Shown here piece after piece: positions 7,035-54,736 of a stretch of DNA of 64,000 bases. The position numbers and the translations under genes were made by a program. Below the pieces are notes generated by a model. It saw only the letters and a program-made list of their open reading frames with translations. It was not told the origin of the DNA and did no database searches. Every line of letters starts with the position of its first letter. Position 1 is the first letter of the stretch. Source of the stretch: a bacterium (lineage in GTDB: Bacteria > Elusimicrobiota > Elusimicrobia > UBA1565 > UBA9628); NCBI GenBank assembly GCA_021782205.1, contig JAJXVH010000007.1, positions 5,514-69,513 of the forward strand, in the 5' to 3' direction.

Positions 7035-7865
7035 ATGGCGTTGCATCTACCGATCAACGGCGTCTGCAATATCAAGTGCGTGTTCTGTTCCGCGCACGGG
7101 CGCACGGGCGGCTATGAGTTGCCGGACCTGCTGAAGGAAATCAACGACGACAGGACGGGCCACGTGCAGATCTCGGGCGGCGACCCGATGATGCGCAGGC
7201 CGCTGGAAGTGCTGGCCATCGTGGCGCATGCGAAGAAACAGGGTAAGATCGTCGAGTTCCAGACCAACGGCGTTCTGGTGGAGAAATGGCCGCCGCGTCG
7301 CCTGAGCCAACTCACGGGCCTGATCGACTTCTGGAACATTAATTTTTCCGCGCACACGCCGGAATTGGATGAGGCGGTGACGCTGACGCCGGGTGCGTTC
7401 GACGCGCGTTCGCGCGGGGTGCGCCGCCTGCTGACGTTGGGCAAGCCCGTGCGTCTCAACTACATCGTTCACGAGCAGAACTACCGCCATGCCGAGGACT
7501 TCGTACGCTTCGCGGCGAAAGCGTTTCCGGGCTTCGCGTGGATACAGTTCTCCTACGTCAAGGGCATGGGCCGCGCCAAGGGCAACGCCATGGTGATGCC
7601 GCGTTTTCGCGACGCCGCCCCTTTCCTGACGCGGGCCTTCCGCGCCTGCGACGAACTGGGCGTGAACTTCGACGTGGACCACATCCCCGTCTGCTTCGTG
7701 CTGGAGTGGAAGGACCGCCACGCCGACTACCGCAAGATGCGCGAGGCCCAGCCGGGACGCCACCTGGCGGAAAAACAGCAGGTCGCCGACTGCGACGGCT
7801 GCGCCATGCGCGAGCTGTGCCCGGGGCCGCGCAAGGACTACATCGAGGTCTACGGAAGCCTATGA
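7035..7865 (+). CDS. radical SAM protein (HxsC-like)
   Basis: CNIKCVFC, SGGDP, QTNG, HIPVC, C-terminal CDGC-x5-CPG. Confidence 0.88.
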   Translation: MALHLPINGVCNIKCVFCSAHGRTGGYELPDLLKEINDDRTGHVQISGGDPMMRRPLEVLAIVAHAKKQGKIVEFQTNGVLVEKWPPRRLSQLTGLIDFWNINFSAHTPELDEAVTLTPGAFDARSRGVRRLLTLGKPVRLNYIVHEQNYRHAEDFVRFAAKAFPGFAWIQFSYVKGMGRAKGNAMVMPRFRDAAPFLTRAFRACDELGVNFDVDHIPVCFVLEWKDRHADYRKMREAQPGRHLAEKQQVADCDGCAMRELCPGPRKDYIEVYGSL

Positions 7866-9145
7866 ACGCGGCCTCAGCAATCGCTGCCTTCGACGTCGAG
7901 GCCCTGCGCGCGCGCTACCCGGCGTTGGAGCGTGCGCGCGACGGCCGCCGCCTGGTCTACCTCGACAGCGCGTGCACCGCGCTTAAGTCCCGGCGCATGG
8001 CCGACGCTTTAGCTGCGTTCTACGCCGAGGGCGGCGGCTGCGGCGGCAAGCGCTCGACGCACCGCCTGGGCCGCGAGGTCGAGGAGCTCTTTTCCGCCGC
8101 GCGCGCCGCGGCCGCGGCCTTCCTGAACGCCGACGGCCCCGGCGAGATCGTCTTCACCTCGGGCACGACCGAGGCCGCCAACCTGGTCGCCCGCGGATTT
8201 CCGTACGACGACGCGCGTCGCGGCGTGGTGATCACGGACTTGGAGCACAACGCGGTGGCCCTGCCGTTCTTGGAAGCCGCGCGGCGCGGCGAGATTGACC
8301 TGAAAATCTGCCCCTCGCGCGACGGGCGTCTGGATTTGAACCGCTTGGAAGCGCTGGTGGGCGAGACGACGGCGCTGGTCGCGGTCACGCACGCGTCCAA
8401 CGTCATGGGCGGCGTGGCGCCGGCGGCCGAGGCGGCCAAGATCGCGCGGCGCAAGGGCGCGCGGATCTTCGTCGACGACGCGCAGTTTCTGGGCACCCAC
8501 CGCGAGAACGTGGCGACCTTGGGCGCGGACTTCGTCGCGTTCTCGGCGCACAAGCTGGGCGGGCCTTTCGGCTTCGGCGTGCTCTGGGGGCGGGAAAACG
8601 AGCTCCATCGCTTGCGCCCCTGGAAAGTCGGAGGCGGCACGGTCAAGGACGTGGCTTGGGACGGCGGCGAGGGACTGCCCGAGGCGGTTTATCTCGACGC
8701 CCCCGCGCGCTTGGAGGCGGGAGTGCCTGACTTCGGCGGAGCGGTCGGCCTGCGCGAGGCCTTGGCCGAGCGCGAGGAGCTTCCGGCGGCCGCGGTCCGC
8801 GCGCACGTCGCGGGACTGGTGCGGCGGACCGTCGCGGGGCTGGTGAAGACCGCGGCCGTGCGCGTGCTCGGACTTCCCGAGGACTTGGAAAAGGGAAGCC
8901 TGGTGAGCTTCGCGCCCGCGCATCCAGAATTCTCGGCCCAGGACTTCAACATTTATCTGAACAATGAACTGCCGGGACGCTTCGTGGCCGTCCGCGTCGG
9001 CGAGCACTGCGCGCACCTTCTGCATCGCCGCCTGGGCGTCAATGCCAGCGTGCGCGCCTCCTTTGGCCCCTACAACACCGCGGCCGAGGCGGACCTCTAC
9101 GTGGACGCCGTCGCTTCCTACGCGCGGGAGGCCTGCGGTGGCTGA
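7862..9145 (+). CDS. SufS/CsdA-type cysteine desulfurase (class V PLP enzyme)
   Basis: VYLDSAC, FTSGTTEA, LEHNA, SAHKLGGP (PLP Lys), VRVGEHCAH (catalytic Cys); ATGA overlap at 7862. Confidence 0.88.
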   Translation: MNAASAIAAFDVEALRARYPALERARDGRRLVYLDSACTALKSRRMADALAAFYAEGGGCGGKRSTHRLGREVEELFSAARAAAAAFLNADGPGEIVFTSGTTEAANLVARGFPYDDARRGVVITDLEHNAVALPFLEAARRGEIDLKICPSRDGRLDLNRLEALVGETTALVAVTHASNVMGGVAPAAEAAKIARRKGARIFVDDAQFLGTHRENVATLGADFVAFSAHKLGGPFGFGVLWGRENELHRLRPWKVGGGTVKDVAWDGGEGLPEAVYLDAPARLEAGVPDFGGAVGLREALAEREELPAAAVRAHVAGLVRRTVAGLVKTAAVRVLGLPEDLEKGSLVSFAPAHPEFSAQDFNIYLNNELPGRFVAVRVGEHCAHLLHRRLGVNASVRASFGPYNTAAEADLYVDAVASYAREACGG

Positions 9146-10415
9146 CGTTCCCGCGCGCATCGCCGCCGAACTGCCCGCGCTCGAGCGCATCGACCGCGAG
9201 AGCTTCGACGAGCCCAAGTGCTTCGACATCCTGCTCAACTACAACTGCTCGGCCAAGTGCCTGTTCTGCTCCCAGGACTTCGCGTGGCGCAAGGAGCCCA
9301 ACGACCTGCCCTTCGAGAAGGCCGTCGAGTTCATGTACATGGCCTACAAAAACGGCTACCGCCGCCTGGGATTTACCGGCGGCGAGCCGACGATCCGTCC
9401 GGAGCTGCCCAAGCTCATCGCGCTGGCCAAGAAGATCGGCTACGGCTACGTGCGCATCCAGACCAACGGCATCCGCATCGCCGATTACGCCTACGCGAAG
9501 ACCCTCGCCGACGCGGGCCTGACCTTCGTGAAGTACTCCCTGCACGGCCACAACGCGGAGCTTCACGACAAGCTGGTCGCGGTGCCCGGCGCCTTCGAAA
9601 AGAATCTGCGCTCCATCGAGAATCTTAAAAAATTGAACGTGGGCATCGGCGTCAACATCGTGCTCAACGATTGGAACTACCGCCACCTCGTGGAGTTCTA
9701 CGAGCTGTTCCTGCTCAAGCTCCAGCTCTCGAACTTCGTCATCATCGCTCCGCTCTACGAGGGCAACATGACCCTCAACGACAAGGAGGGCGCCAAGATC
9801 GGCGCGCGCCTGTCGGACATGGCACCCTACATTCGAAAGGCCTACGAGGTCTTCACCAAGATCAACTATCCCAAGCCGCCGCTTCTGCTCCATTTCACGC
9901 CCTGCGTTCTGCCCGGCTACGAGCAGCAGATGCTGGGCTGGTCGGCGTTCAACACCATGGTCGTCAATCCCAAGGGCGAGAAGCGCGACCTGGACATGAC
10001 CGCGCAGTCGCACACGACCAAGACCGAGGCGTGCAAAAAGTGCGTCTACAACGACCGCTGCATCGGCTGGGACTCAAGCTACGCGCGCGTGTTCGGCACC
10101 GATGAGATTGCGCCGCTTCTGGAGATTCCGGAGCGCTACGACGCGCCCACGCGTGGCCGGCCCGCGCACGAAGGCCGGGGCGGCGTGCTGACCGACAACG
10201 AGCAGTGCGTGCTGGAGGTGCTCAAGCGGCGCAATGATTTGACGACCAAGCAGTTCCTGGAGGTCGCCGAGTCCCTGCCCATCTGCAAGGACTGCAAGGA
10301 CGAGAACGCCGTGATGAACGCGGCGGAGACCTTGATCAAGATGGGCGTCGTCGAACGCCGGTTCGTCAAGGGCAAGTATCTCTGGTCGCGCAAGGCGGAG
10401 GTGCCCGCCACATGA
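9138..10415 (+). CDS. radical SAM protein with C-terminal CxxC winged-helix-like extension
   Basis: CSAKCLFC, TGGEPT, QTNG, CKKC-x5-CIG, tail LPICKDCKD; GTG start after GGGAGG. Confidence 0.9.
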   Translation: MADVPARIAAELPALERIDRESFDEPKCFDILLNYNCSAKCLFCSQDFAWRKEPNDLPFEKAVEFMYMAYKNGYRRLGFTGGEPTIRPELPKLIALAKKIGYGYVRIQTNGIRIADYAYAKTLADAGLTFVKYSLHGHNAELHDKLVAVPGAFEKNLRSIENLKKLNVGIGVNIVLNDWNYRHLVEFYELFLLKLQLSNFVIIAPLYEGNMTLNDKEGAKIGARLSDMAPYIRKAYEVFTKINYPKPPLLLHFTPCVLPGYEQQMLGWSAFNTMVVNPKGEKRDLDMTAQSHTTKTEACKKCVYNDRCIGWDSSYARVFGTDEIAPLLEIPERYDAPTRGRPAHEGRGGVLTDNEQCVLEVLKRRNDLTTKQFLEVAESLPICKDCKDENAVMNAAETLIKMGVVERRFVKGKYLWSRKAEVPAT

Positions 10416-11392
10416 GCGCGCGCGCCGAAAGCGGCTGGACGCCGCCGCCGGGCCGGACGCAGAAGTTGGTGCTGTTCACCGGCTTCTCCTGCTCCAGCCA
10501 CTGCCACTTCTGCATCGACCTCAACAAGCGCGACCTGCCCGACAAGTCCTCGCGGCAGATCGTCGAGGAGATGGTCCGCGCCAAGGCCGCGGGTGTGGAG
10601 TATCTGGAGATGATCGGCGGCGAGGCCACGATCCGCGGCGATTTCATCCCACTGGTGCGGACCGCCCGCAAGCTGGGCTTTAAAGACGTCGTCGTGGTGA
10701 CCAACGGCCGCATGTTCGCCGATCCCGCCTTCGCCCGGGCCACGGTCGAGGCCGGAGTCACCGACCTGGTCTTCTCCATCCACGGCCCCGACGCGAAGCT
10801 CCACGATGAGTTGACCTACGTGCCCGGCGCGTTCGACGAGTTGATCCAGGGCGTCGCCCACGTGCGCGCGGCGGGCCTTGCGCGCATCTTCGGCAACTGC
10901 ACCGTGGTCAAGCAGAACATGAAGCGCCTGCCGGAGATCGCGGCGCTGTTCTTGAAGCTGGCCATCCACCACGTCGAGTTCATTTTCGTGGACCCGACCT
11001 ACGGCGGTGCCTATACGAACTTCAACGGATTGGTGCCGCGCATCGCGGACGCCGCGCCGTACATGCGCGCGGCGCTGGACGTGGGCCGCCGCGGCGGCAC
11101 GCGCGACTTCGTGGTGCGCTACGTGCCGCTGTGCCACTTCACCGACTACCTGGACCAGGTCTCCGAGATCCGCGAGGTCGCGACCTTCCGCACCCGCCAC
11201 TGGGCGCCGGACTTCATCAACGATGACGTCGGCGCGGGGCGCGTGGCCGCGGGCCGCGCGAAGACGGAGCGTTGCGCGGGCTGCGCGCTGTACGATCGCT
11301 GTGAAGGAATTTGGCGGGAGTATTTGAATCGCTATGACGATTCTGAACTCATCTGCGTTGGAAAAGCGGCGACGGTCGGTGAGGATCGCTGA
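10412..11392 (+). CDS. radical SAM protein (HxsC-like)
   Basis: CSSHCHFC, GGEAT, TNGR, YVPLC, CAGC-x5-CEG. Confidence 0.9.
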   Translation: MSARAESGWTPPPGRTQKLVLFTGFSCSSHCHFCIDLNKRDLPDKSSRQIVEEMVRAKAAGVEYLEMIGGEATIRGDFIPLVRTARKLGFKDVVVVTNGRMFADPAFARATVEAGVTDLVFSIHGPDAKLHDELTYVPGAFDELIQGVAHVRAAGLARIFGNCTVVKQNMKRLPEIAALFLKLAIHHVEFIFVDPTYGGAYTNFNGLVPRIADAAPYMRAALDVGRRGGTRDFVVRYVPLCHFTDYLDQVSEIREVATFRTRHWAPDFINDDVGAGRVAAGRAKTERCAGCALYDRCEGIWREYLNRYDDSELICVGKAATVGEDR

Positions 11393-11393
11393 C

Positions 11394-12113
11394 ATGCGCC
11401 GCAAAGGCCGACTTGTACTCGCGTCCTATGGCCTCAACGATCGGCAGATGACTATTGAGACTTTGGTCGCCTTGCGCGAGTGCGATTTAATTTACAGCGA
11501 GTCTTTGGATGGAGATTCACGGGCGTCTCTTGAGCGGACGTGTCCTCCCATCATTTCTCTGCGGGATATTGCACCGGACGACGTCACGGATTTGTTGATC
11601 TCGGAGGTGCGCAAAGGGAAGAATGTCGCGTACCTGACTTACGGAGATCCCGGGATTTTAAGTCCTTGCGAACGGTTCGTTTCGCGATGTGAAAAGGAAA
11701 AAATAGAATATCGCCTGTATCCGGCGATTTCTTCCCTCAACGTGCTTCTCTGGCAGGAAAAACTAATCAAGTCCGGCGCGGCCGGCGTCTTGTTGAGTTG
11801 GGTGGGCGCGGAAATCCGCGCGTTCTGCATCGATATTCCGGCGCTTGTTTTTCTTTTTGGAGTGAAGCCGTTCAACAGCGCAAGCGTGGCGAGTCTGATC
11901 GTGAATATTCAGCGCGCTTATCCGTCGGATCATGTCGTGGAGGTGCTCTCGTACGCGGCATCGACCCCGGATAACCCGCGCCGAAGAAAATACGCCGTGA
12001 GCGAGCTGGCGCGAGCATGGCGGGAGGCGGATAATCAGAGCACGCTCTACCTTCCCGCGGTCGGTCGTCGGGTAGCGAAGGCCCGTAAGCGGGTACGAGG
12101 CGGACATGCCTGA
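11394..12113 (+). CDS. SAM-dependent methyltransferase, tetrapyrrole-methylase fold, borosin-like
   Basis: GRLVLASYG, QMTIETL, EVRKGKNVAYLTYGDPG, PAISS, YPSDHVV, STLYLP. Confidence 0.72.
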   Translation: MRRKGRLVLASYGLNDRQMTIETLVALRECDLIYSESLDGDSRASLERTCPPIISLRDIAPDDVTDLLISEVRKGKNVAYLTYGDPGILSPCERFVSRCEKEKIEYRLYPAISSLNVLLWQEKLIKSGAAGVLLSWVGAEIRAFCIDIPALVFLFGVKPFNSASVASLIVNIQRAYPSDHVVEVLSYAASTPDNPRRRKYAVSELARAWREADNQSTLYLPAVGRRVAKARKRVRGGHA

Positions 12114-13065
12114 TTTTCCGATCTGGCCGCAATGCAATATCGCCTGCGTTTTCTGCTCCAACCCGACGGAGGGTTATCGCGAGACGACAGGGATGTATTC
12201 TTACGAAGAACTCAAGAAAAAGGTCGAGGACTACAAGCGCGGCCTACAGACTTTCGTTAAATTCGACGAGGTCGGCGACTACTTCAATCTAACCGGCGGC
12301 GAGCCGACGATCCATCCTGAATTTCTGAGGGTGCTCGCCTTGATCCGAACGGAATTCCCCGCGAACCTGATCCGCCTGCTGTCCAACGGCCGGATGTTCG
12401 CCGAAGCGAATTTCGCGCGCCGCACCTGCGGCATCGTCGGCCTGCCGTTCGAGATCGCTGTGCCGATGTTCGGCGGCGACGCTCGCAGCCACGAGGCAAT
12501 CTCGCGCACGCCGCTTTCTTTCCAGCAGACCGTTCAGGGTCTGCGGAATTTAGCCAAGCATCGTCTTCCCGGCCAGAAGGTTGAGATCCGGATCATCATG
12601 ACGAAAGTTCAGGCGCGCTTTTTAGGCGGCTTGCTCGAGCTCTTGCTGGCTGAATTCGCATGGGTCGATCGCGTGGTGTTCCTGTTCGAAGAGATCGAGG
12701 GCTTCGCCGAACACTACAAGGATCGGCTGGTTTTCACTCAGAGCGAATGCGCCTCCGTCATCGATCGACATTTCGATATGCTTTCGAGGTTTAGGGAGGT
12801 GCGGCTGTACCATTTTTCGCTTTGTACCACGCCGACGCGGCTGTGGCCCTACGTTTGGCGCACCCTGGCCGGATTTAAAGTGACCTGGCTGGACGGTTGC
12901 CGCACCCGTTGCCTTTACCGCGAACAGTGCGTCGGCGTGCATCGATCCTACGAACGTCACGCGGGCGCTCCCGACATCTCGCCGATTCTGGAGAGGCGTC
13001 CGGTCGAGCTTTCTGGCGATCCCTACCATCCGATCAGGGCGGTCAATGACCCGACTTCGCTCTAA
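12106..13065 (+). CDS. radical SAM protein (HxsC-like)
   Basis: CNIACVFCSNP, TGGEPT, SNGR, HFSLC, CRTRC-x5-CVG. Confidence 0.88.
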   Translation: MPDFPIWPQCNIACVFCSNPTEGYRETTGMYSYEELKKKVEDYKRGLQTFVKFDEVGDYFNLTGGEPTIHPEFLRVLALIRTEFPANLIRLLSNGRMFAEANFARRTCGIVGLPFEIAVPMFGGDARSHEAISRTPLSFQQTVQGLRNLAKHRLPGQKVEIRIIMTKVQARFLGGLLELLLAEFAWVDRVVFLFEEIEGFAEHYKDRLVFTQSECASVIDRHFDMLSRFREVRLYHFSLCTTPTRLWPYVWRTLAGFKVTWLDGCRTRCLYREQCVGVHRSYERHAGAPDISPILERRPVELSGDPYHPIRAVNDPTSL

Positions 13066-13480
13066 GTGTGTCCGCGTGCGTGCGCCGGAACACGTGGATC
13101 GCCGCGCATTCTTGGATGCGTGCGGCCGAATGACCGATGACGCCTGGGTGCGCCTGGATGAGCGAAACGGACGACTCACGGCGGTGCTGACGCCCCGCGT
13201 CGGGTCCGGTGTGGGATTGGTCGCGCGCTGGCGCCGTGAATACGAATCGGCCGCAACGCGCTGCCTGTTTTTGGCCGAGCAGCGCGTTTTGAACGCGGCG
13301 GTCATGTCTCGGGCGCTGGAATTGGCCCAGCATGTGGACGCGCGACGGCAAAGGCCGTTGCCGGAGTTGTCGCCGGAGCGTCGCGCCGAGATTTCGGCCT
13401 TGTTGGCCGAGGCGGACGCCGCTCCCAAGGATCCTCTCGGCATCACGAGGCCGTGGTCGGATCGTGGGAGCCGCGATTGA
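13046..13480 (+). CDS. divergent HxsD-like protein
   Basis: ELSPERRAEISALLAE...DPLGITRPW parallels the C-terminus of 14993-15568. Confidence 0.55.
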   Translation: MTRLRSKCVRVRAPEHVDRRAFLDACGRMTDDAWVRLDERNGRLTAVLTPRVGSGVGLVARWRREYESAATRCLFLAEQRVLNAAVMSRALELAQHVDARRQRPLPELSPERRAEISALLAEADAAPKDPLGITRPWSDRGSRD

Positions 13481-13857
13481 GGCGCGCTTCGGCGTCTCTG
13501 CCGCGGTCGCTTTATCGGCGCGCCGACCTTGCCGCCGCGGCGGATTGGTTGGGGGGGCGCGTTCAGGCCAGGCTTCTTTCTCGTGGCCAGCGCTGGCACC
13601 TTTCCATTTTGACCGACGCCGGATTGGATGCTCGCGCGGCCCTGGCGGAGATGCTCAATGAGGCGCTGTTGCGGGGCTTACGCGAAATGCGGCTTAAAGA
13701 GGTCGGCCCGCTGGCCGCCGCCGTGGCCGGACGCATGCTCGATCATGGGTTTCCCTCGGACCCGGCGGACCCGTTGGAGGAAATGGAACCGCAGGTCCGC
13801 GCCGACCGCAGGCGAGAAACTCAAGCGCTTATAGAGCGGGCTCGGGGCATACCGTGA
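13477..13857 (+). CDS. divergent HxsD-like protein
   Basis: PRSLY and EMLNEALLRGLR parallel PRRLY and EFLNELLNQEQR of 17097-17567; TTG start overlapping the upstream stop (ORF open from 13453). Confidence 0.5.
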   Translation: MRRASASLPRSLYRRADLAAAADWLGGRVQARLLSRGQRWHLSILTDAGLDARAALAEMLNEALLRGLREMRLKEVGPLAAAVAGRMLDHGFPSDPADPLEEMEPQVRADRRRETQALIERARGIP

Positions 13858-14945: not shown

Positions 14946-14948
14946 GAT
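14920..14948 (+). promoter_or_regulatory. sigma70-type promoter
   Basis: TTGACA (14920) - 17 bp - TAAGAT (14943) with extended TG, upstream of ATG 14993. Confidence 0.72.
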
Positions 14949-14992
14949 CAGTAGAGGTCGTATTTTGCTACCTTATTTGCGGCCAGGCGCTC

Positions 14993-46734: not shown

Positions 46735-49118
46735 CCATACGCCGCAAAAATGCCTCTCCGGTCGATGCGCCTTGGGACATGATCGTGGTCGGCGGCGGAC
46801 CGGCGGGGAGCACCCTGGCGGGATTGGCGCGGCGTCATGATGCGTCGGCGCGAATATTGGTGTTGGAGAAAGATCCCTTTCCGCGGCATCATGTGGGCGA
46901 GTCGCTTCTTCCAGGGTCGATCCCGGTGCTTAAAGAGCTGGGAGTTCACGAAAAAATTGACGCGGGCGGGTTTCCTCGAAAGATGGGCGTGATCTTTGTT
47001 TGGGGCGACGACCGCACACCATGGGACGCGGACTTCAATAATCTCAACGTTGAGATGCTTCGCAAGCACGGGCGGATGCTGGACGCGGAATTCTCCTGGC
47101 AGGTGCTGCGTTCTCGTTACGATCAAATTCTGCTCGATCATGCCGCTGAGCTCGGCGCCGAAGTCCGTTATGGTTGGAAAGCGGTCCGGGCGGTGGAGGA
47201 AAATGGGCGAGTCGTCGGCGTCGAAGTCGAAAGAGACGGGCGACGGGATGTCCTGCGCTGCGGCACTCTCGCCGACTGTTCGGGACAGTCGGGATTTCTG
47301 TCCGCGCAACGCGGCACGCGCGTATTCAACGAGGAACTGCGCAACGTCGCCGGTTACGCCTACTACAAGGGTGCGAAGTGGAAATACGAAGTGTCGGGAC
47401 ATCCCGATAAGACTAAGATTTTCATCTGCTCGGTTCCCGAAGGGTGGTTCTGGTATATCCCTCTTGCTCCCGATGTCGTTTCAGTCGGACTCGTGTCCAA
47501 GGCGTCTTACGTGAAAAATAATCCGCGCGGGCATGACTACCGGCAATTCTTTTTGGACGCGCTGTCGCGGTGTTCGGAGATCGCACCCCTGTTACGCGAC
47601 GCCCGTCTCTTGGATGATGTCGATCCGAACGTTCCCGGTAAGGATTTCTTTTCCGCGTCGGACTGGTCCTATCTCAATGAGCGGTCCTGTGGGGAGGGCT
47701 GGCTGGCGGCGGGAGATGCGGCGTTCTTTCTCGACCCGCTGCTCTCTTCGGGCGTGATGATGGCGCATCTGTCCGGACATCGCGCGGCCTATACCTGGTT
47801 GACCGCGCGGCGCGAAGACGACGCGGAGATTCGCTCCCTGTTGTGGTCGGATTACGACCGCTTCTGCAAGGAAGTCGCCGGCGCGTTTATGGCCCTGGTG
47901 CGCTTCTGGTACCGTCACGATCCGAATGCGCGCGCCTGGTGGTCCGAAGCGCGCGCCGCGTTGGGCGCGCGAACGCCGCTGGATTTGGACGACAAGACCG
48001 CTTTTGTCGCCGTGGCGGCAGGACTGACGTATTATTTTGAACGTGCTTATACGTCTCAGAATCTTTTGTTCGGCTCCAGCGGCGCCGAGCATAGCTGGCA
48101 ATGGGAAGGCACTAAACTTGAACTAAAAAACTGGACGCGGCAGATTCTGGCGATCGTCGAGACAGGCTTCTTGAAGGCCGATCCCATTCGTGATGACAAT
48201 CTCCGCCGCGCGGAGACCGAGGCCGCGCGCGAGCGCCTCTCCGACGCGTGGATACCCCGCGTGACGCGGCGCATCGAGGAGGAAACCACGTTCCTGCCGT
48301 TGTCGGCGGATGGCCGGCTGCATCCGGCGCGGCGCTATCGCGTGGTGAAGGCCGAAGGGTTGGACGCGGGTGACGACGCGGTAAATCCTAAGCGCATCCT
48401 GCCGCGATCCTACGCGCGGGCGCTATCGTTGGTCGACGGACGAAGATCGATCGGGGAGATTCGGGAAGAACTTTCGCGGACGTCGGCTTTGCCGCGGGAT
48501 ATTCTGGACGCCCAGGTGTTTCGCCTGCTGAAGGATTTGGCCGTGCTGGGGGCTGTCGAATGGGAAACGAAGCCAGGCGCTCCCGTCGGGTTTGTGCGCG
48601 CCACAGCCGAGGGTGCCTGGGCGCATTTTCGTCGGGGCGAAGAACTGTTGCGCGCGGGGGACCCCTCGGCCGCCCGGCAGTATTTGGATCGGGCTATTTC
48701 CGCCGGTGCTCCGGGGCCATGGGCCTATGCCCTCAGAGGCGAGGCTCTTCGCCATCTCCAAAACCCACGTGAGGCGGGACTGGACTTAGATGAGGCGCTG
48801 CGGTTATGCGAATGCGCGACCACCGGGAGCGGGGGCTCGCGTTTGGACGCGTTGCGCGGCCGTTTTGAGGATTCCGTCGAGCGCGCGATGATGGAAGACC
48901 GCATTCGTCTTTTGCGCGCGAAGCTACGTCTCTCTTCGGGCAACGCGGCTGGAGCGCGTGAAGACGCCGACGCGGCTCTTCGCGCCAATCCGCGCCAGTC
49001 CGAGGCCCTTGTCGTGCGCGCTCGGGCTGAGATGCTGCTAGGCCGCCTGTCCCAGGCGAAAGAAGATCTCATGGCGGCATTGGCCATCGAATCCTCTGGC
49101 CTTCGCCACCAAGGCTGA
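46731..49118 (+). CDS. flavin-dependent halogenase with RRE-like and TPR C-terminal domains
   Basis: GGGPAG, HVGES, DCSG, WFWYIP, GDAAFFLDPLLSSG; then LVDGRRSIGEI...LKDLAVLGAV and TPRs. Confidence 0.87.
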   Translation: MTIRRKNASPVDAPWDMIVVGGGPAGSTLAGLARRHDASARILVLEKDPFPRHHVGESLLPGSIPVLKELGVHEKIDAGGFPRKMGVIFVWGDDRTPWDADFNNLNVEMLRKHGRMLDAEFSWQVLRSRYDQILLDHAAELGAEVRYGWKAVRAVEENGRVVGVEVERDGRRDVLRCGTLADCSGQSGFLSAQRGTRVFNEELRNVAGYAYYKGAKWKYEVSGHPDKTKIFICSVPEGWFWYIPLAPDVVSVGLVSKASYVKNNPRGHDYRQFFLDALSRCSEIAPLLRDARLLDDVDPNVPGKDFFSASDWSYLNERSCGEGWLAAGDAAFFLDPLLSSGVMMAHLSGHRAAYTWLTARREDDAEIRSLLWSDYDRFCKEVAGAFMALVRFWYRHDPNARAWWSEARAALGARTPLDLDDKTAFVAVAAGLTYYFERAYTSQNLLFGSSGAEHSWQWEGTKLELKNWTRQILAIVETGFLKADPIRDDNLRRAETEAARERLSDAWIPRVTRRIEEETTFLPLSADGRLHPARRYRVVKAEGLDAGDDAVNPKRILPRSYARALSLVDGRRSIGEIREELSRTSALPRDILDAQVFRLLKDLAVLGAVEWETKPGAPVGFVRATAEGAWAHFRRGEELLRAGDPSAARQYLDRAISAGAPGPWAYALRGEALRHLQNPREAGLDLDEALRLCECATTGSGGSRLDALRGRFEDSVERAMMEDRIRLLRAKLRLSSGNAAGAREDADAALRANPRQSEALVVRARAEMLLGRLSQAKEDLMAALAIESSGLRHQG

Positions 49119-49210
49119 AGATCCATGGATGAGTCCTTTCAATTCATCCCGCCGTTGCGGACGCGGTCCGTGGATAGGCGGGCACGCGCCGCGCCCCACG
49201 GCAATCCTGG

Positions 49211-52200
49211 ATGTGTTGGCCGGCCTGGATCGACCCGGATAAAATTAAACCGAGCTTGGATCCGGTGTCTTCAATGATCACACGAAACGCCAGAGGCGCT
49301 CCATATCATGACGCATGTCAATCTCGCGACGTGCTGCGCCGAACGCGGGCCGACGACGTCGTCGCCATTTGGGAGTCTCTCTTCCTCTCGCGTTCTTCCC
49401 GCTTCATCTACCGGCGGCACTGCGCCATAAATCAGGAGTTCTATGAGCGCGCCCTTCAGGCTGCGCAGGATAGCGGCGCGTCGGACACGCTTCTACAGGC
49501 GCGTCTTTTGCGCCTTTTGGGACGGAATCAAGAGGCCGCGGCTTCTTTCGACCTAGCCACAGAGACGGCTCCGGATTGCGCCGAAGCCTGGGCCTGGCGC
49601 TGGGAACTTGAATTTTCGGCGACCGATAAAAAGCGCTCATTCGAAGGAATCGATCGAGCGCGCGCCCTCGAACCCAGACATGCGCTTTGGGCGGCCCTGC
49701 GCGGCATTGGTCAGTCCATCGACATTCTCAGCGGCCGCCGCGGCGAGACGGTCGGTGACCGGCGTTCGGCTTATCGAGATCTGGAGGAAGCGCTGTCATT
49801 GGAGCGCGATTGCACGCTCGCTCTGGTTGCTGTCGGGCTGCTTGATCTCAAAACATCTCGGATACGCGAAGCACTGTCCTCGTTCCAAAGAGCGGCCGCG
49901 CTGGCACCGAACGCCTCGTTCATTCTGAATAGAACGGCGGAATGTCATCTTGCTCTGGGCGAACGAGAAGAATTCGTCGCCGCCGCCGAAAACGCCATGT
50001 TGATCGACGAGGATCTTGGTTATTTCCAGCAAGCCCTGAATGTCGAAGTCCCGAAGCAAACTTTGCCGTCCCTGCTGCAGTACACGAATCGGCATTTACT
50101 TCGTCACCCGAAGGACTATTGGATGTATGTGCTCCGCGGTGACCTCAAGCGCGCGCCGCTGATCAATGATCCACTGGGAGGGTTGCAAGACCTCGAAAAG
50201 GCGGTGGAGTTGAATCCCGAGTGCTCCTATGCCTGGGCGTACCTTGCCCGCGCGCGGCAGACGCACGCCGGCATCATGGCCGCGATTGCCGCGGCGGATC
50301 GCGCCATAGCCTTGAGTCCGCGGTGCGGTTGGCATAGAATCTGGCGCGGTGAAATCCGGCGCCGCCTCGGAGACTTATCCGGAGCCCTTTCGGATATTGG
50401 CGAGGGACTTGCGCTGGACCGTGATTATGAACTGGGCTACTCATGGCGCGGCGGAGTCCTGCGCTCGTTGGGCCGCGCGTCGGAGGCAGTGGATGACCTC
50501 CGGCTCTCGGAGCGCCTGAACCCAACCCACGCATGGACCGTTCAGGAAAAGGCGCTGACGCTACGCGCGCTAGGCCACACGCAAGAAGCACTCGCGGCGC
50601 ATGACCATGCCCGGAGGCTTGATTCTAAGTTTGTCTGGTGTGCGAATCCGGCGAAGGGGAGTGAAGCGATTTCCGAACTCGATCACGTTATAAGCCGCGA
50701 TGACCGGAACGCCAGCGCCTGGGCCTGGCGCGCCCACACGAATCTGCTTCTACGCAATCATGATGATGCACTGAGCGACGCGACGCGTGCGCTCGACATC
50801 GACAATAAATCGACGCTGGCATTGACGGTGCGTGGGCGTGCGCGCCGCGAACTGGGGAGGCGACGCGCTGCCCTGGCGGATTTTCAGAGAGCGTTGAAGA
50901 TCGATCCTCGCGACTCGGTCGTGCGGTCTTGGTCGGGTAAACTGTTGTTTGAATTGGGCAAGCCGCGCGCCGCACTCAAAGAATTGCGTCGCGCGGCCGA
51001 TTCGGATCGAAAAACGGCGAGCATTTATTTGTGGCAGGGGGAGGCGGCCGAGGCGCTGGGCTTGTGGAACGAAGCCGAGAATTCATACGCGCAGGCCCTG
51101 TCGATCGACCGGCGCTATCTCGACGCCTTACTTTCCACCGTGCGTCTGCGCGTGCGTCGATCGGACGGGCCAGGCGCCATTCGCACGTTGCTGCAGGCGG
51201 CGCGCCTTGCTCCCAGGCATCCCAAGGTGCGAATAGCCTGCGGCCTGGTTTTGGATTTAAATGGTTTTCCTGCGGATGCGCGGCGGCAGTATCGAATGGC
51301 GTTTTCTGAGGGCGTACGTCTTTCCGTGGAGGAACGAACTCTGCTCCGCGGGAAACTGGATCGTCACCTGCCCGCGTCGCGCCTTGTCGTCTTGCGTCTC
51401 CTGACGTTGGCCGCGCATGCGTCGCGAAGCGCCCGTCACGAGGAGGCCCTCGCCCTTGCCGGCGACGCGCTTCGGGTCGACCCGATGAACGTGGACGCGC
51501 TCCAGCGCCGGGTCGAGGCGAACAGATGCTTGAATCGCTTCGGCCCCATGCTCCGGGATCTAAACCGTCTTGTCGCATTAAATTCGAGAGATCCCCTCTC
51601 GTTATTGTTGCGCTCACGCGGTCGAAGAAATGCCTCCCAATTTTCCGGCGCGTTGCGTGATGCGCGTCTCGCATTGGCGGTCATGTCAGCGAATTCCCCG
51701 GAGGCGTGGGTCGCCTGCGCGGAGGCCTTGAGAAATCTTGGACGAGAAATGGAATCCGTAAATGCGGCGTCCGGCGCGATTCGTCTCAGGCCCAACTGGA
51801 GTTGGGCTTATGTCGTCCGAGGCAAGGCGTTTCGTCAATCGGGCAGGATTGCCTTGGCACGGGCGGATTTTGAGGCGGCGATTCGGTTGGATCCCGAGGA
51901 CGCCAAGGCGCGTGGATGGCTGGCGGAAACGCTCAGAAAGGACGGCCGTATCGACGCCGCGGCGCGAATGGTTCGCGCGGCCGAAAAGCGGATGCCTGAT
52001 TGCGCCTGGATCGTGGCGCTCGAGTCCGAAATCGACCGCGAGCGCGGCCGCTATTATTCGGCGCTTCGGCGCATCCGCCATGCGGTACGTTTGGATCCCC
52101 ATGCGTGCTGTGCTCACGATTTCCTCGGCGATGATCCACCGCATGCAAAGCATGATGCCGCTTTTGCCTGGATATACGCTTTGCGCGGTGAAACGCATCG

Positions 52201-52600
52201 ACAAGAGAAACGATGGGATAGGGCTCAGTCGGATTTGGAGTGGGCACTCCATCTTGATCCCGGGTGTTTTTGGGCGCGGGCATGGCTGGGGGAGTTGCTG
52301 TTGGCACGCGGAAACTCCAAGCAGGCCGCGCGGGAATTGCGCCGCGCGTTGCGGCTCGTGCCCTCGTTCGCGGACGGCTGGGTCTGGCTTGGCCGGGCGC
52401 TTTTGGAAGGCAATTATCGTAAACCGGCCCTGGCGGCTTTCGAGCGGGCGTCGCACGTCGAGCCGAAGAATCCGTGGGCTCTCATTGGGCGCGGAACCGC
52501 CGCTCAAAGCCTTGGCCAAGCGCGGCAGTCCGAACGGCTCTTCCGGCGCGCGCAAACGCTGGCTCCGACGCTGTTCGCCTCCGCGAGGAGCAACACGTGA
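49211..52600 (+). CDS. large tetratricopeptide repeat protein
   Basis: 1129-aa ORF of near-continuous TPR-like units; start uncertain. Confidence 0.83.
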   Translation: MCWPAWIDPDKIKPSLDPVSSMITRNARGAPYHDACQSRDVLRRTRADDVVAIWESLFLSRSSRFIYRRHCAINQEFYERALQAAQDSGASDTLLQARLLRLLGRNQEAAASFDLATETAPDCAEAWAWRWELEFSATDKKRSFEGIDRARALEPRHALWAALRGIGQSIDILSGRRGETVGDRRSAYRDLEEALSLERDCTLALVAVGLLDLKTSRIREALSSFQRAAALAPNASFILNRTAECHLALGEREEFVAAAENAMLIDEDLGYFQQALNVEVPKQTLPSLLQYTNRHLLRHPKDYWMYVLRGDLKRAPLINDPLGGLQDLEKAVELNPECSYAWAYLARARQTHAGIMAAIAAADRAIALSPRCGWHRIWRGEIRRRLGDLSGALSDIGEGLALDRDYELGYSWRGGVLRSLGRASEAVDDLRLSERLNPTHAWTVQEKALTLRALGHTQEALAAHDHARRLDSKFVWCANPAKGSEAISELDHVISRDDRNASAWAWRAHTNLLLRNHDDALSDATRALDIDNKSTLALTVRGRARRELGRRRAALADFQRALKIDPRDSVVRSWSGKLLFELGKPRAALKELRRAADSDRKTASIYLWQGEAAEALGLWNEAENSYAQALSIDRRYLDALLSTVRLRVRRSDGPGAIRTLLQAARLAPRHPKVRIACGLVLDLNGFPADARRQYRMAFSEGVRLSVEERTLLRGKLDRHLPASRLVVLRLLTLAAHASRSARHEEALALAGDALRVDPMNVDALQRRVEANRCLNRFGPMLRDLNRLVALNSRDPLSLLLRSRGRRNASQFSGALRDARLALAVMSANSPEAWVACAEALRNLGREMESVNAASGAIRLRPNWSWAYVVRGKAFRQSGRIALARADFEAAIRLDPEDAKARGWLAETLRKDGRIDAAARMVRAAEKRMPDCAWIVALESEIDRERGRYYSALRRIRHAVRLDPHACCAHDFLGDDPPHAKHDAAFAWIYALRGETHRQEKRWDRAQSDLEWALHLDPGCFWARAWLGELLLARGNSKQAARELRRALRLVPSFADGWVWLGRALLEGNYRKPALAAFERASHVEPKNPWALIGRGTAAQSLGQARQSERLFRRAQTLAPTLFASARSNT

Positions 52601-53988
52601 AATTCGTTCTGCCCACGGTGAGGCTCGTCGCTGCGGTGGCCTATATATTCCTTTGGGCGGCGATAGGGTGGAGCGATTTCCGTTTCAAGAAAATAAAAAC
52701 CCGGTCGATTTTTTATGGCACGCTTGGTGCGCTAGCGGGCTATGCGCTTCTGGCCTCCACCACGTGGTTCGGTCAGCACGGGATCGGCAGCCATTACTTG
52801 CAGGCTCATTACTACTTTGCGGCGGCGCAGAATGCCTTGATCTGCGCGCTGACCGCACTGGCGTTATGGTTTCTGGGCGTGTGGCCGGCCGGCGACGCGA
52901 AGCTCTTTATCCTGCTGGGCGTGCTTTATCCGCTGACCACCTTTTCGGACCCGAGCGATTTCCACCGCCTCTTTTTCTCCGCATTGGTGAATGCGTTCCT
53001 CCCGGCCAGCGTTTATGTGTTCATCCAGGCTGGAAAGCATGCCTTGGAAACGCGTCTTTTCCACCGGCGCCATTTTCTGGTGCAACTCGGCTGGCGTAAG
53101 GAGTTTTCTTTTCTTTTAAACGGAATGCGCGCGGGATTTTCTAGGTTATGGCTTCGTCGCAAGAGGGTTCTCGTAACGATTCGCAAGGACATTCGCCACC
53201 CGCGGGCTGTGGCTGAAGCGAGCGCGAAAGCCGTCGCCGGTCTTTTGATGATGTCGACCGTTTCGTATTACGCGGCCAGCCTTTTCACCTCACCTGTGCT
53301 CTATACCGCGTTATGGGCGGGTGCCTACTACGCATGGGCGAAGATCCCGTCGGCGGATCTGCGGCGGATGATCTCGTGGTGCGTCGCGATCGCGGTCGTT
53401 GTTCTGCTGCTGCACCATCCGCCTCAGGATATTTCCCGTTTGGTCCGGATCTTCGAGAACTTCGCTCTTTTTAGCCTGTTTTTCTATCTCTCTTCGGGTT
53501 GGGGTATAAAAATTCTCTCCGAGGATGCTAACACGGCGTATTTGCTGGCGTTCGTCGTGCCATTTGCCGGGATGCTCTTAGGCTTGATGGCATTTCTGCT
53601 GGGGTTTGCGCGCGCGGCGGGAGCGCAGACGCTTCTCATGATTGCCGCGATGGGCGGATTTCTCGGACTGAATCTGGCGCTGGTTCGCCTCTGGGACCAT
53701 GAGGTGACGCCGCTCCATTTTGACTATGTGACGGTCAACGTCCTGCTGGCGCCCGAATTCATCAGAAAACTGCGCGCGGATGAGAGTTTCTTTAACGAAC
53801 ACTTTTCACGGCTTTATCCCGACGGCCTGACTAGCGAGCAGGTGTCCGCGCTCAAGGAGTGGTGCGCTCGCCATGGAGTCGAAAGGATCCAGCTCACGCC
53901 GACGATTTCTTTCGCTTCCTGGATATTTGTCGGCTTTTTTGCGACTTGGCTGTTGGGGGGGATGAATTATTTCGATCTGTTGCGCTAA
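52597..53988 (+). CDS. A24 prepilin/preflagellin peptidase-like multi-pass membrane protein
   Basis: WSDFRFKKI (first Asp), GVWPAGDAKL (GD motif), C-terminal TISFASWIFVGF; about 12 hydrophobic segments; GTGA overlap. Confidence 0.78.
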   Translation: MKFVLPTVRLVAAVAYIFLWAAIGWSDFRFKKIKTRSIFYGTLGALAGYALLASTTWFGQHGIGSHYLQAHYYFAAAQNALICALTALALWFLGVWPAGDAKLFILLGVLYPLTTFSDPSDFHRLFFSALVNAFLPASVYVFIQAGKHALETRLFHRRHFLVQLGWRKEFSFLLNGMRAGFSRLWLRRKRVLVTIRKDIRHPRAVAEASAKAVAGLLMMSTVSYYAASLFTSPVLYTALWAGAYYAWAKIPSADLRRMISWCVAIAVVVLLLHHPPQDISRLVRIFENFALFSLFFYLSSGWGIKILSEDANTAYLLAFVVPFAGMLLGLMAFLLGFARAAGAQTLLMIAAMGGFLGLNLALVRLWDHEVTPLHFDYVTVNVLLAPEFIRKLRADESFFNEHFSRLYPDGLTSEQVSALKEWCARHGVERIQLTPTISFASWIFVGFFATWLLGGMNYFDLLR

Positions 53989-54736
53989 GCGTGCGACGAG
54001 GATGCGTTGAGCTCGGACCGCCCGGCAACGGCGGAATGACGATGGACATCATGTGCTGGATCGAAGCTTGCCACTGTTTCAAGCGGCCCACCGCGCTTGT
54101 GCGCGTGAACCCGGCCCCTTGGTTGTCCGTGCATTTAACGCCGTAGACAGGATGTTGGCTCGGGTAAGCTTGAGCCAGTTTCTCGCAGATTTCAGCGAAC
54201 CGGTTCACTGCGGCGATCTGATCAACGCAGAAAACGATCAGGGCGTTCTGAGAAAAGTGATAGCCTGGTTCCAAGAGTCTTTCCGCGTGGCAAACCTGGT
54301 AGCCGTTATTGAAGAGTCCTCGGTTTACCGGATGCAACTGGGCTATGATGCTGTCCACGGACGATACGGCGGCTATGAGCTCCCCGCTGTAGCCGCGCTT
54401 TTGGCAGTAGTTGGCCATGTTCAGCGCGTCGCTGTAGAGCCCTGGATGACCGTAAGTCACATAGGCGACGCTGCGGCCGCGCCGAAGCTGCTGGTGGAGG
54501 TCCTCGGCGGCGATTTTAAACCGTGTTTCGTAATCCATCTCCGCGAATCTCGCATCGCAGAATGTCCTGATATCGCGGCAAAAGGCCTCAAGAAATCCGC
54601 GGATTTTTTCACCATCGCCGTGGAAATAGTACGCCACGTCCGCTTGCTTTAGAATCTGAAGAGTGCGCAAGCTCGCATCTTGAGGCCGGTCGACTCCCAG
54701 GCCACAGAAATAAAGACGCCCGAGTCGTGCTTTCAC
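53894..54736 (-). CDS. SAM-dependent methyltransferase, tetrapyrrole-methylase fold, borosin-like
   Basis: GRLYFCGLG, RRGRSVAYVTYGHPGLY, AVSSVD, GYQVCHA, YPSQHPV, SIVIPP. Confidence 0.78.
   Translation of the reverse strand: MKARLGRLYFCGLGVDRPQDASLRTLQILKQADVAYYFHGDGEKIRGFLEAFCRDIRTFCDARFAEMDYETRFKIAAEDLHQQLRRGRSVAYVTYGHPGLYSDALNMANYCQKRGYSGELIAAVSSVDSIIAQLHPVNRGLFNNGYQVCHAERLLEPGYHFSQNALIVFCVDQIAAVNRFAEICEKLAQAYPSQHPVYGVKCTDNQGAGFTRTSAVGRLKQWQASIQHMMSIVIPPLPGGPSSTHPRRTLSATDRNNSSPPTAKSQKSRQISRKRKKSSA

Follow-up and report, generated by a model that had tools for sequence, protein, structure and literature searches.

His-Xaa-Ser (HXS) systems are best described in a compact form: the canonical set, HxsD-HxsB-HxsC-HxsA, is an antiphage system that blocks the entry of phage DNA (Li et al., Nat Commun 2026, PMC13128918). 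According to the available text of that study, more than 99.8% of canonical Hxs systems have four proteins, in agreement with the compact cassettes mentioned in a preliminary description of the DNA considered here, and 99.7% occur in Pseudomonadota. In the Escherichia coli system HxsB, HxsC and HxsD are all needed for HxsA to be processed at its N-terminus and to acquire a +8 Da change (‘+C/-4H type’) on an SHRSS unit; HxsC binds HxsD, mature HxsA acts in the periplasm, the basic residues of its repeats are linked to DNA binding, and in-vitro reconstitution of the chemistry failed (PMC13128918). The present article concerns a far larger relative of these cassettes, carried on a 64,000-nucleotide stretch (the window) of a metagenome-assembled genome (MAG) of Elusimicrobiota (3.09 Mb, 177 contigs, 95.6% complete). 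A block of ~48 kb at 7035-54736 of the window contains 36 genes (g01-g36) around one HxsA4-type His-Xaa-Ser precursor, and we interpret it as an Hxs variant that is expanded and specific to its lineage. The 36 genes probably form one co-inherited locus, the largest form seen of an Hxs system specific to three free-living families of Elusimicrobiota.

With canonical HXS, as far as the published account describes it, the locus shares an HxS-repeat protein encoded beside HxsB-type radical S-adenosylmethionine (SAM)/SPASM enzymes, HxsC-like enzymes and HxsD-like small proteins, and an N-terminal region ahead of the repeats that is probably processed before export. The canonical form has four genes with two radical SAM domains, whereas the window locus has 36 genes with eleven, and the canonical order D-B-C-A contrasts with D-B-D-B-A around the window precursor. 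Canonical HxsA contains a peptidoglycan-binding domain as well as five basic repeats; HxsA4 has no such domain and 9 to ~39 Gly-centred repeats. To the canonical set the window locus adds two flavin-dependent halogenases, two PhyH dioxygenases, a short-chain dehydrogenase/reductase (SDR), two TP_methylase-fold methyltransferases, an array of twelve tetratricopeptide repeat (TPR)-like proteins, a SufS-like protein and an A24-like membrane protein. Within the HxsA4 (NF038313)/HxsC4 (NF038332) subtype of NCBIfam, the precursor model is passed and the HxsC4 model is not; the precursor family is therefore already curated, and the companion enzymes, none of which reaches the HxsC4 cut-off, are not of the curated HxsC4 type. 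Already on record are the HXS system with four genes, the models of its families and the model for the HxsA4 precursor; the Elusimicrobiota variant appears to be new. A literature search found no paper on the Elusimicrobiota form, its radical SAM multiplicity, its halogenase/TPR array or HxsA4, and the earlier statement that the combination is not known as a described system holds to that extent; on the basis of this search, we are aware of no further peptide-maturation locus in which eleven radical SAM domains, halogenases and twelve TPR proteins surround a single precursor. The nitrogenase-paralogue radical SAM loci of groundwater Elusimicrobia (bioRxiv 10.1101/765248), considered as a possible counterpart, are a different locus: the window has no nif-like genes, and the available text of that preprint mentions no halogenase, TPR or SPASM for them.

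Domain calls were made by Pfam and NCBIfam profile searches of the window’s open reading frames (ORFs), with curated cut-offs as the threshold. A near gap-free chain of plus-strand ORFs, g01-g26, extends from 7035 to 35866 and is followed by two minus-strand genes, g27 and g28, by a second plus-strand chain, g29-g35 (38519-53988), and by g36 on the minus strand. The 36 genes had been said to have mostly overlapping start and stop codons, and 4-nt NTGA overlaps occur at 19 of the 31 same-strand junctions; only three gaps exceed 30 nt (g09/g10, 47 nt; g14/g15, 37 nt; g33/g34, 92 nt). The earlier count of eleven radical SAM domains is likewise confirmed, with PF04055 above its cut-off in 11 ORFs and an intact CxxxCxxC in 11/11. 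NCBIfam models sort these enzymes into three groups, comprising two true HxsB proteins (g11, g13), six HxsC/HxsC4/MoaA-like enzymes (g01, g03, g04, g06, the C-terminal domain of g17, and g18), all below the HxsC cut-off with g06 scoring best, and three proteins (g15, g16, g19) that score highest against the PapB family model, with 95-115 bits (cut-off 340). Four HxsD-like and three HxsB-like genes are present, one of the latter without the radical SAM cluster motif, and the gene order runs C-like, D, D, B-like, D, B, D, B, A, then further radical SAM genes. The first sixteen genes are as follows.

g01, 7035-7865, plus strand: radical SAM, HxsC/MoaA-like (PF04055, 55.7 bits; HxsC, 70.7 bits, below 267.9); CNIKCVFC at residue 11, C-terminal CxxCx5C; colinear in relatives.
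g02, 7862-9145, plus strand: SufS-like class-V pyridoxal-phosphate cysteine desulfurase (PF00266, Aminotran_5, 284.5 bits); ATGA overlap with g01.
g03, 9138-10415 (longest ORF from 8964), plus strand: radical SAM (PF04055, 84.8 bits; CSAKCLFC); HxsC4 model 110 bits, below 500.
g04, 10412-11392, plus strand: radical SAM (PF04055, 62.3 bits; CSSHCHFC); HxsC4 model 115.7 bits, below 500.
g05, 11394-12113, plus strand: TP_methylase-fold methyltransferase (PF00590, 53.6 bits).
g06, 12106-13065, plus strand: HxsC-like radical SAM (TIGR03977, 145.6 bits, cut-off 267.9; CNIACVFC).
g07, 13046-13480, plus strand: HxsD-like small protein (hhalign against an HxsD-like alignment, probability 99.3%, E 7.8e-21).
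g08, 13477-13857, plus strand: HxsD-like small protein (same comparison, probability 97.1%, E 6.2e-11).
g09, 13854-14945, plus strand: HxsB-like, cluster motif gone and CxxCx5C kept (TIGR03978, C-terminal SPASM part only, 40.7 bits).
g10, 14993-15568, plus strand: HxsD-like 1 (TIGR03976, 47.2 bits, cut-off 50).
g11, 15565-17100, plus strand: HxsB 1, radical SAM/SPASM (TIGR03978, 469.2 bits, cut-off 370; CNQKCLYC).
g12, 17097-17567, plus strand: HxsD-like 2 (TIGR03976, 42.1 bits, cut-off 50); ATGA overlap with g11.
g13, 17564-19021, plus strand: HxsB 2, radical SAM/SPASM (TIGR03978, 395 bits, cut-off 370; CNFRCVYC).
g14, 19046-19411 (longest ORF from 19025), plus strand: HxsA4 precursor (NF038313, 71.7 bits, cut-off 55).
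g15, 19449-20552, plus strand: radical SAM peptide-maturase-like, best model PapB family (PF04055, 60.2 bits; NF047865, 114.5 bits, below 340).
g16, 20530-21687 (longest ORF from 20482), plus strand: radical SAM peptide-maturase-like (PF04055, 48 bits; NF047865, 97.1 bits, below 340).

A conserved leader and a variable core, with HxsB and PapB-like radical SAM genes adjacent, give the region features expected of a locus for a peptide made ribosomally and modified post-translationally (RiPP). Running the Hxs profile models, a check proposed with the preliminary description, gave a divided result, as the HxsA4 and HxsB cut-offs were passed while those for HxsC, HxsC4 and, narrowly, HxsD were not. 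The SufS called earlier is retained as a class-V enzyme and is named SufS-like because the sufS model TIGR01979 gives it 296 bits, below the cut-off of 475. Neither g07 nor g08 had a family match in the Pfam or NCBIfam scans. The CxxxCxxC motif is absent from g09 and from 9/9 orthologous slots, and g09 is therefore a conserved cluster-less paralogue, not a product of local decay.

The order of elements in the precursor g14 is a Lys-rich N-terminus, the FLSSEEGKVTKENV box, a hydrophobic stretch, HTS(HGS)x8 and HCRGGWCNPRC. The hydrophobic stretch of 13 residues plus PAPA appears signal-peptide-like, and the core that follows it, with the pattern H-x-NYLHNSGG-HTS-(HGS)n-HCRGGWCNPRC, contains nine HxS units (HTS and eight HGS) and three Cys; its HGS units have no Arg or Lys. 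A Pfam scan of g14 found no domain, and thus no peptidoglycan-binding domain, apart from a below-threshold collagen-repeat match. The leader box FLSSEEGK(I/V)TKENV is invariant in 5/5 aligned orthologues, in which repeat number varies, and across relatives the N-terminal half is near-invariant (LLPQxKKDASVFLSSEEGKITKENVVKTAAALGIIGAALLKAxPAPAAHxNYLHNSGGxGSHTS). The number of HGS units ranges from 8 in the window to ~38 in relatives. At the DNA level the HGS array (19295-19384) uses mixed synonymous codons, with 88% matches at a 9-bp period over 6.6 copies, and is therefore no perfect DNA repeat, although its length varies about five-fold between genomes. Contigs from three sequencing runs, which may be the MAG’s own source, span g14 without differences in the precursor region (18500-20000).

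The claim of a single HxS precursor holds for the window, where g14 is the only HxS-repeat ORF, and fails for the genome, which has a second on contig C140. There, at 15700-28200 (L059), lies a second, smaller Hxs locus, which encodes an HxsD-like protein, an HxsB with 46% identity to g11, an HxsA4 whose end is HGSY, and five more radical SAM enzymes; it holds the genome’s only other g35 homologue, and no halogenase or g15/g16-like gene was seen in it.

Most HxsA4 copies of the source genus have the end HCRGGWC(N/C)PRC, others have HFSF, HGSY, HGSGT or HGQW, and these ends co-vary with particular enzymes. Radical SAM genes like g15 and/or g16 lie downstream of RGGWC-ending precursors in 13/13 loci (window, G044, G041, G043, G042, G020, G010, L020, L022, L027, L021, G009, G197), among which G009 has just g15 and, where its contig stops, a fragment of g16, and G197 combines the end SRGGWC with a g16-like match alone, at 27%. 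No such gene was found in the fetched sequence of 6/6 loci whose precursors end in HFSF, HGSY or HGSGT (G034, G037, G038:C32, G038:C120, G000:C140, G253). The counts cover loci with downstream sequence, and so omit L003, L005, L007, L008, L018, L019, L023, L024, L031 and others. From this co-variation we infer that g15 and g16 act on the RGGWC end.

The nearest chemical precedent for the H-x-S unit is the chemistry of the cyclophane (‘triceptide’) maturases HtkB and HaaB, which, as described in the text available, cross-link aromatic residues, including His at C2, to the beta-carbon two residues on (PMC11499958). H-G-S fits this three-residue pattern and is repeated in HxsA4. The +8 Da change of E. 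coli HxsA differs from the -2 Da of a simple cross-link, and the locus proteins scored only 43-59 bits against the cyclophane-maturase families XyeB, GrrM/OscB, FxsB, YhhB and AmcB (cut-offs 310-450), which places none of them in those families.

The distribution of HxsA4 in the phylum is narrow and, within its range, dense. It passes its cut-off in 28/41 relatives. Of 301 genomes drawn evenly across the phylum, 45 had an HxsA4 match at E≤1e-8, 43 of them above the cut-off, all in three families (f1, 20/26; f3, 3/4; f5, 21/22), with 0/88 in f4 and 0/89 in f14. Among 14 control genomes outside the phylum there were no matches at E≤1e-8 and none passed the cut-off, one, Corynebacterium glutamicum, matching at E≤0.001. 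Related loci found with HxsB2 belonged in 17/20 cases to Elusimicrobiota or Elusimicrobia MAGs, two being unclassified bacterial and one a weak partial match in a Eubacteriaceae MAG. The segment from g01 to g14/g16 is colinear in all ten related loci long enough to show it (L017/G020, L019, L020, L022, L026/G041, L027, L028/G042, L034/G043, G010, G009), and G009, G010 and G020 share the genes found upstream of it, namely two class-III aminotransferases and an aldehyde dehydrogenase. G020 (L017) is the relatives’ sole complete chromosome; there g03, g11 and g16 are each matched by tblastn in 2-3 separate pieces, which suggests frameshifts, from gene decay or sequencing errors.

Beyond the core, g17-g34 are colinear in four genomes (G041-G044) at 32-76% protein identity, including the fusion genes g17 and g33. 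The order g16-g17-g18-g19-g20-halogenase is found in G041, G042 and G043 and likewise in G044, there without a g20 match. Each of five genomes searched (G041-G045) has 2-3 halogenase genes, located on the contig of the Hxs core in G041-G044; in G045, whose Hxs contig stops inside g17, the two copies are for that reason found on another contig. Contig number and coordinates coincide between G044 and G018, which are therefore taken to be one genome. It too contains g23 and g24, the two PhyH genes, the divergent halogenase, the SDR, g35 and g36, followed by the downstream neighbours known from the window. In the sister family f3 (G034, G037, G038) the loci run in the order g01-g04, g06, HxsD/B sets, HxsA4, three HxsC-like radical SAM genes and then a halogenase, with TPR genes further on in G034; the distance from HxsA4 to a halogenase is 3-7 kb in four further loci, of which three belong to f3. 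The strongest case for TPR and halogenase genes acting together with the Hxs core comes from this recurrence in another architecture and from the fusions g17 and g33, and the co-occurrence elsewhere on which the preliminary description had staked its reading is thus observed for these two classes. Of 13 halogenase-positive relatives, 11 are HxsA4-positive. Homologues of g35 and g36 directly follow HxsA4 in G038:C120, and Hxs genes of G010, G044 and G326 have g35-like matches nearby, as do those of G253 in the form of a weak partial match. The conserved core is g01-g04, g06-g16 and probably g35; the frequent accessory array is g17-g22, g27/g33 and g29-g34; and g05, g23-g26 and g28 are rare additions. 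The genes of the extension are listed below.

g17, 21672-25460, plus strand: TPR array fused to a C-terminal HxsC-like radical SAM domain (TPR families above cut-offs; PF04055, 66.5 bits, residues 954-1110).
g18, 25457-26422, plus strand: radical SAM, HxsC/HxsC4-like (PF04055, 63.1 bits; HxsC4 83 and HxsC 79 bits, both below cut-off).
g19, 26419-27432, plus strand: radical SAM (PF04055, 64.4 bits); three Cys in all, none beyond the cluster motif.
g20, 27425-28672, plus strand: TPR protein (TPR_2, 61.5 bits); orthologues in G041, G042 and G043.
g21, 28669-30315, plus strand: TPR protein (TPR_1, 117 bits).
g22, 30312-31880, plus strand: TPR protein (TPR_11, 93.5 bits).
g23, 31877-33109, plus strand: TPR-like (TPR_16, 21.2 bits, below 32.7); orthologue seen in G044 only.
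g24, 33106-34317, plus strand: TPR-like (TPR_2, 20.6 bits, below 27).
g25, 34314-35108, plus strand: PhyH-family Fe(II)/2-oxoglutarate dioxygenase (PF05721, 49.1 bits, cut-off 22; HID and a later His); 52% orthologue in the G044 locus.
g26, 35105-35866, plus strand: PhyH-family dioxygenase, borderline (PF05721, 23.9 bits, cut-off 22; HID and a downstream His).
g27, 35863-37656 (longest ORF to 37836), minus strand: flavin-dependent halogenase (PF04820, 111 bits; GGGPAG, WFWYIP).
g28, 37724-38557 (start 38557 or 38515), minus strand: SDR (TGxxxGxG, NNAG, YxxxK; many SDR models, E 1e-27 to 1e-37).
g29, 38519-40549 (longest ORF from 38447), plus strand: TPR protein (TPR_2, 98.8 bits).
g30, 40546-42576, plus strand: TPR protein (TPR_19, 50.5 bits).
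g31, 42573-44606, plus strand: TPR protein (TPR_2, 78.8 bits).
g32, 44590-46734, plus strand: TPR protein (TPR_2, 111 bits).
g33, 46731-49118, plus strand: flavin-dependent halogenase with C-terminal TPR fusion (PF04820, 87.4 bits; TPR_2, 37.2 bits; GGGPAG, WFWYIP); orthologues at 60-76% identity in four genomes.
g34, 49211-52600, plus strand: large TPR protein (TPR_2, 146.7 bits).
g35, 52597-53988, plus strand: polytopic membrane protein, N-terminus A24 (prepilin-peptidase)-like (PF01478, 16.8 bits, E 0.0099, below 26.5).
g36, 53894-54736, minus strand: TP_methylase-fold methyltransferase (PF00590, 59.9 bits); 40% orthologue behind g35 in G044, 28% homologue beside HxsA4 and a g35-like gene in G038:C120.

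The pairs of halogenases, PhyH proteins and methyltransferases noted earlier are borne out by matches to PF04820, PF05721 and PF00590. The estimate of about twelve TPR-like proteins comprises ten above Pfam cut-offs and two below (g23, g24), of which g24 has an Atlas structure model that aligns to TPR solenoids over residues 10-398 (template modelling (TM) score 0.65-0.67). Inspection of their N-termini revealed no evident signal peptide in the TPR proteins. The g17 fusion is kept in four orthologues at 52-68% identity, and a complex prediction of its residues 1-870 with HxsA4, run without controls, scored 0.02 against a mark of 0.32, a value that speaks neither for nor against binding. The SDR is real and sits on the minus strand; a plus-strand ORF at 38046-38450 taken for g28 was rejected as its antisense. 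Relative to G044, an SDR segment of ~700 bp (37746-38443) is inverted between colinear flanks (blastn, 70% identity, reverse orientation), so that the SDR runs with the halogenase in the window and with the TPR operon in G044, and no convincing inverted repeat flanks the inversion. A phmmer search of g25 against the PDB gave no matches. The HxD iron motif in PhyH proteins argues for a hydroxylase and not a halogenase.

Flavin-dependent halogenases are recognized by a GxGxxG motif for flavin adenine dinucleotide and a WxWxIP motif. The nine best PDB matches of g27 are all enzymes of this class (8zop, 3e1t and 3i3l among them; E 1e-54 to 3e-30), and a Lys, a candidate counterpart of the catalytic one, follows the GES motif in the alignment to halogenase structures. 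The closest solved structures are of the CndH/CmlS/PltA type, enzymes that act on carrier-tethered substrates. Other halogenases of this class act on RiPPs, MibH among them. As in the RiPP examples for which text was available, such as a proteusin brominase (PMC10858898), the halogenase genes stand beside a ribosomal precursor and radical SAM genes; the window differs in having two copies, one of them fused to TPR repeats. Another partial parallel is found in the models matched by window proteins, which include QhpD (80-102 bits, cut-off 453) and QhpG (114 bits, cut-off 240), all below threshold. In the biogenesis of quinohemoprotein amine dehydrogenase, the radical SAM/SPASM enzyme QhpD and QhpG, a flavoprotein with the halogenase/monooxygenase fold, mature a small Cys/Trp-containing gamma-subunit that is then exported. 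The window flavoproteins differ in carrying the halogenase motif WxWxIP, the best PDB matches of g27 are halogenases, and no dehydrogenase subunits are present.

A24 peptidases have two conserved membrane-embedded Asp, the second within a GxGDxKL-like motif. In g35, D27 and WPAGDAK are invariant in five homologues, and the nearest named Atlas clusters carry Peptidase_A24 (score 0.92, TM 0.55-0.57 by query); these features weakly support an A24 identity, and the peptidase proposed earlier is kept only as A24-like, its PF01478 score being below the cut-off. A PDB profile search with g35 found no matches. The genome has two copies of g35, both inside Hxs loci.

The surroundings of the locus include several further features. 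Just upstream of g01, a gene at 6058-6978 encodes a 306-residue Gly/Ser-rich protein with a hydrophobic N-terminus, the end CCSCPTAGGNCDI and no Pfam match; the family has five copies in the genome, two of them adjoining the two Hxs loci, and in G009, G010, G020, G042, G197 and G326 partial matches are found upstream of Hxs genes. A 202-residue ORF before it (5413-6021) is also kept upstream in G009, G010 and G020. A promoter and terminator scan of 5000-24000 showed no excess in counts (4 promoter-like sites against 2.8 +/- 1.6 in shuffles; 19 terminator-like against 19.3). Sigma-70-like sites at 14920-14948 and 6008-6036 have TTGACA, a 17-nt spacing and TAAGAT or TACACT, each with TG; the former lies in the sole sizeable gap of the core, just before g10 (HxsD1), and the latter precedes the upstream secreted-protein gene. 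Downstream, the minus-strand genes at 54740-64000 form a separate lipid or polyketide-type cluster, 89-96% identical in G044, with a FabD-like acyltransferase, an alpha/beta hydrolase, an acyltransferase with a phosphopantetheinyl-transferase domain, a 300-residue protein of no known family, a ketosynthase, an SDR and a double FabA-like dehydratase.

Base composition changes within the window. GC content at third codon positions (GC3) is 0.62-0.77 in g05-g36 and 0.84-0.91 in g01-g04 and both flanks; in five relatives the orthologous genes match the flanks (0.82-0.97), except for two at 0.70-0.73 (g35 in G044, g33 in G042). GC3 and the identity contrast with G044 suggest that ~43 kb may have been replaced by a diverged allele. 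A compositional island or horizontal replacement of g05-g36 is not established, because GC3 of long ORFs is broad genome-wide (mean 0.77, sd 0.10); a chimeric contig is the alternative.

A number of observations weigh against treating all 36 genes as one working Hxs locus. Companion models are not reached: HxsC and HxsD score below their curated cut-offs, and the best HxsC4 score is 115.7 bits in the window and 129.6 bits genome-wide (cut-off 500). The PF01478 match of g35 spans profile positions 3-101 of 104 and is below threshold, and its AlphaFold2 model (five sequences; mean predicted local distance difference test score 61) had no PDB match by Foldseek at E≤0.001. The slot of g05 is filled in the source genome only, with no match between g04 and g06 in 13/13 related loci. 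Among the four colinear relatives, only G044 has the PhyH pair, g23/g24 and the SDR beside the locus; G043 and G045 have PhyH elsewhere in their genomes, in G041 and G042 none was found, and the SDR has a counterpart (73%) in G044 and none in the other fetched regions. The colinear genomes are all relatives, and shared ancestry could account for part of the synteny. Modification, binding and export are inferred from sequence and analogy. The expanded single assembly line proposed earlier is accordingly kept in part, as a co-inherited block built on an Hxs precursor whose TPR/halogenase extension is accessory. That accessory status also bears on a composite locus, in which only g01-g16 (7035-21687) would be Hxs and the g17-g36 array would be a neighbouring module with another substrate or an unrelated regulatory or scaffolding role. 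G010 has the core and no halogenase match in its genome at E≤1e-40; 18/29 HxsA4-positive relatives are without a halogenase match at this threshold; all that G020 has of the array is a copy 20-40 kb off, diverged, in part broken and on the opposite strand; 2/12 HxsA4-negative relatives have a halogenase match (G002, 73% complete; G027, weak, 37%); and the three f5 loci fetched are radical SAM-rich, with no TPR or halogenase seen. We nevertheless judge a composite improbable, as g16 and g17 overlap or abut, g17 joins TPR repeats to a radical SAM domain that is a paralogue of the HxsC type, the g16-g20-halogenase order recurs in G041, G042 and G043 (in G044 without a g20 match), f3 halogenases lie near HxsA4 in a different gene order, and g35 and g36, from the far end of the array, stand directly beside another HxsA4 in G038:C120.

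What the product does is a separate matter. Since canonical HXS is antiphage and matures a periplasmic protein effector, a RiPP natural product is one possible reading only. The homology to E. coli defence by a radical-SAM-matured periplasmic HxsA, as reported in the available text (PMC13128918), makes a similar function conceivable here, with mature periplasmic HxsA4 blocking phage DNA entry and the extra enzymes diversifying the effector in an arms race. Between the window and G044, identity is 37-81% for proteins of the locus and 89-96% for those of the downstream flank, and repeat number (8 to ~38) and accessory gene content vary between genomes, as expected under diversifying pressure. 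A defence role is nonetheless rather doubtful. HxsA4 is near-universal in the same three families and was not found in the other families sampled, and it occupies the same chromosomal site between metabolic genes in G009, G010 and G020, a syntenic inheritance that argues against a typical, patchy mobile defence island; no mobile-element genes were among the flank proteins scanned. PADLOC (PADLOC-DB 2023, which is older than HXS) gave no family match other than weak radical SAM similarity to pVip in 5/10 proteins (E 1e-12 to 1e-5). HxsA4 also lacks the peptidoglycan-binding domain, and its HGS units lack the basic residues tied to DNA binding in E. coli HxsA, a difference that also weighs against reading the 36 genes as one Hxs locus. 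Vertical, near-universal inheritance would suit a physiological role such as metal buffering, uptake or tolerance through a peptide or polymer that binds metal, with its many imidazoles and C-terminal thiols pre-organised by cross-links. Nine HxS units here, up to ~39 in relatives, and three Cys fit this, and so, weakly, do four DNA runs from one study that contain the stretch and are labelled mine tailings or mine drainage metagenome, which may be the source sample. No RNA run with the stretch turned up in the same search, a result that is neutral as to expression. Metal handling is still unlikely: Pfam and NCBIfam scans of the locus found neither a metal transporter nor a TonB receptor or metal-responsive regulator, record titles place the relatives in groundwater and other habitats, and a His-rich sequence is by itself no evidence of metal binding.

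If the 36 genes are one co-inherited Hxs locus, a course of maturation can be proposed. The ribosome would make HxsA4, with its Lys-rich N-terminus, leader box, hydrophobic stretch with PAPA and HxS core. In the cytoplasm the four HxsD-like adaptors would pair with radical SAM enzymes, mirroring the E. coli HxsC-HxsD complex, and the two active HxsB, the cluster-less HxsB-like protein and the six HxsC-like enzymes would act repeatedly on the His and Ser of each HxS unit. The C-terminal Cys/Trp motif would be the presumed substrate of g15 and g16. The twelve TPR-like proteins, predicted to be cytoplasmic, could hold the long repetitive substrate and recruit the tailoring enzymes, namely the two halogenases, two Fe/2-oxoglutarate hydroxylases, the SDR and the TP_methylase-fold methyltransferases, while the SufS-like desulfurase may provide sulfur that goes either into the many Fe-S clusters or into the peptide itself. 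Export would follow, the N-terminus being cut by the A24-like g35 or by signal peptidase at PAPA|A-H, and the end product would be a hypermodified His-rich repeat peptide in the envelope. We lean towards an envelope or periplasmic role close to housekeeping over a classical secreted antibiotic. A bolder proposal, to be held only tentatively, is a new ribosomally templated biopolymer pathway, in which an (HGS)n chain with a secretion signal and evolvable length would be converted unit by unit by at least 11 radical SAM enzymes on a TPR-scaffolded megacomplex, then halogenated, hydroxylated, methylated and exported, its product being a core, vertically inherited envelope component (metal-handling or barrier), neither an antibiotic RiPP nor mobile defence.

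The chemistry of HxsB and HxsC is unsolved even in the four-gene E. coli system, as the available text of that study indicates (PMC13128918), and the Elusimicrobiota lineage offers natural dissections of it: its HxsD-HxsB modules are duplicated, one HxsB paralogue is cluster-less, the HxsC-like enzymes number six, the ends of the precursor vary together with particular enzymes, and the substrate consists almost wholly of repeat. The locus is of high interest for radical SAM and RiPP specialists, and if it is true that the TPR proteins scaffold the substrate, they would represent a new solution for long repetitive precursors. The near-universality of HxsA4 in three families raises the question of whether Hxs is primarily a defence system, or whether defence was derived from an older envelope function.

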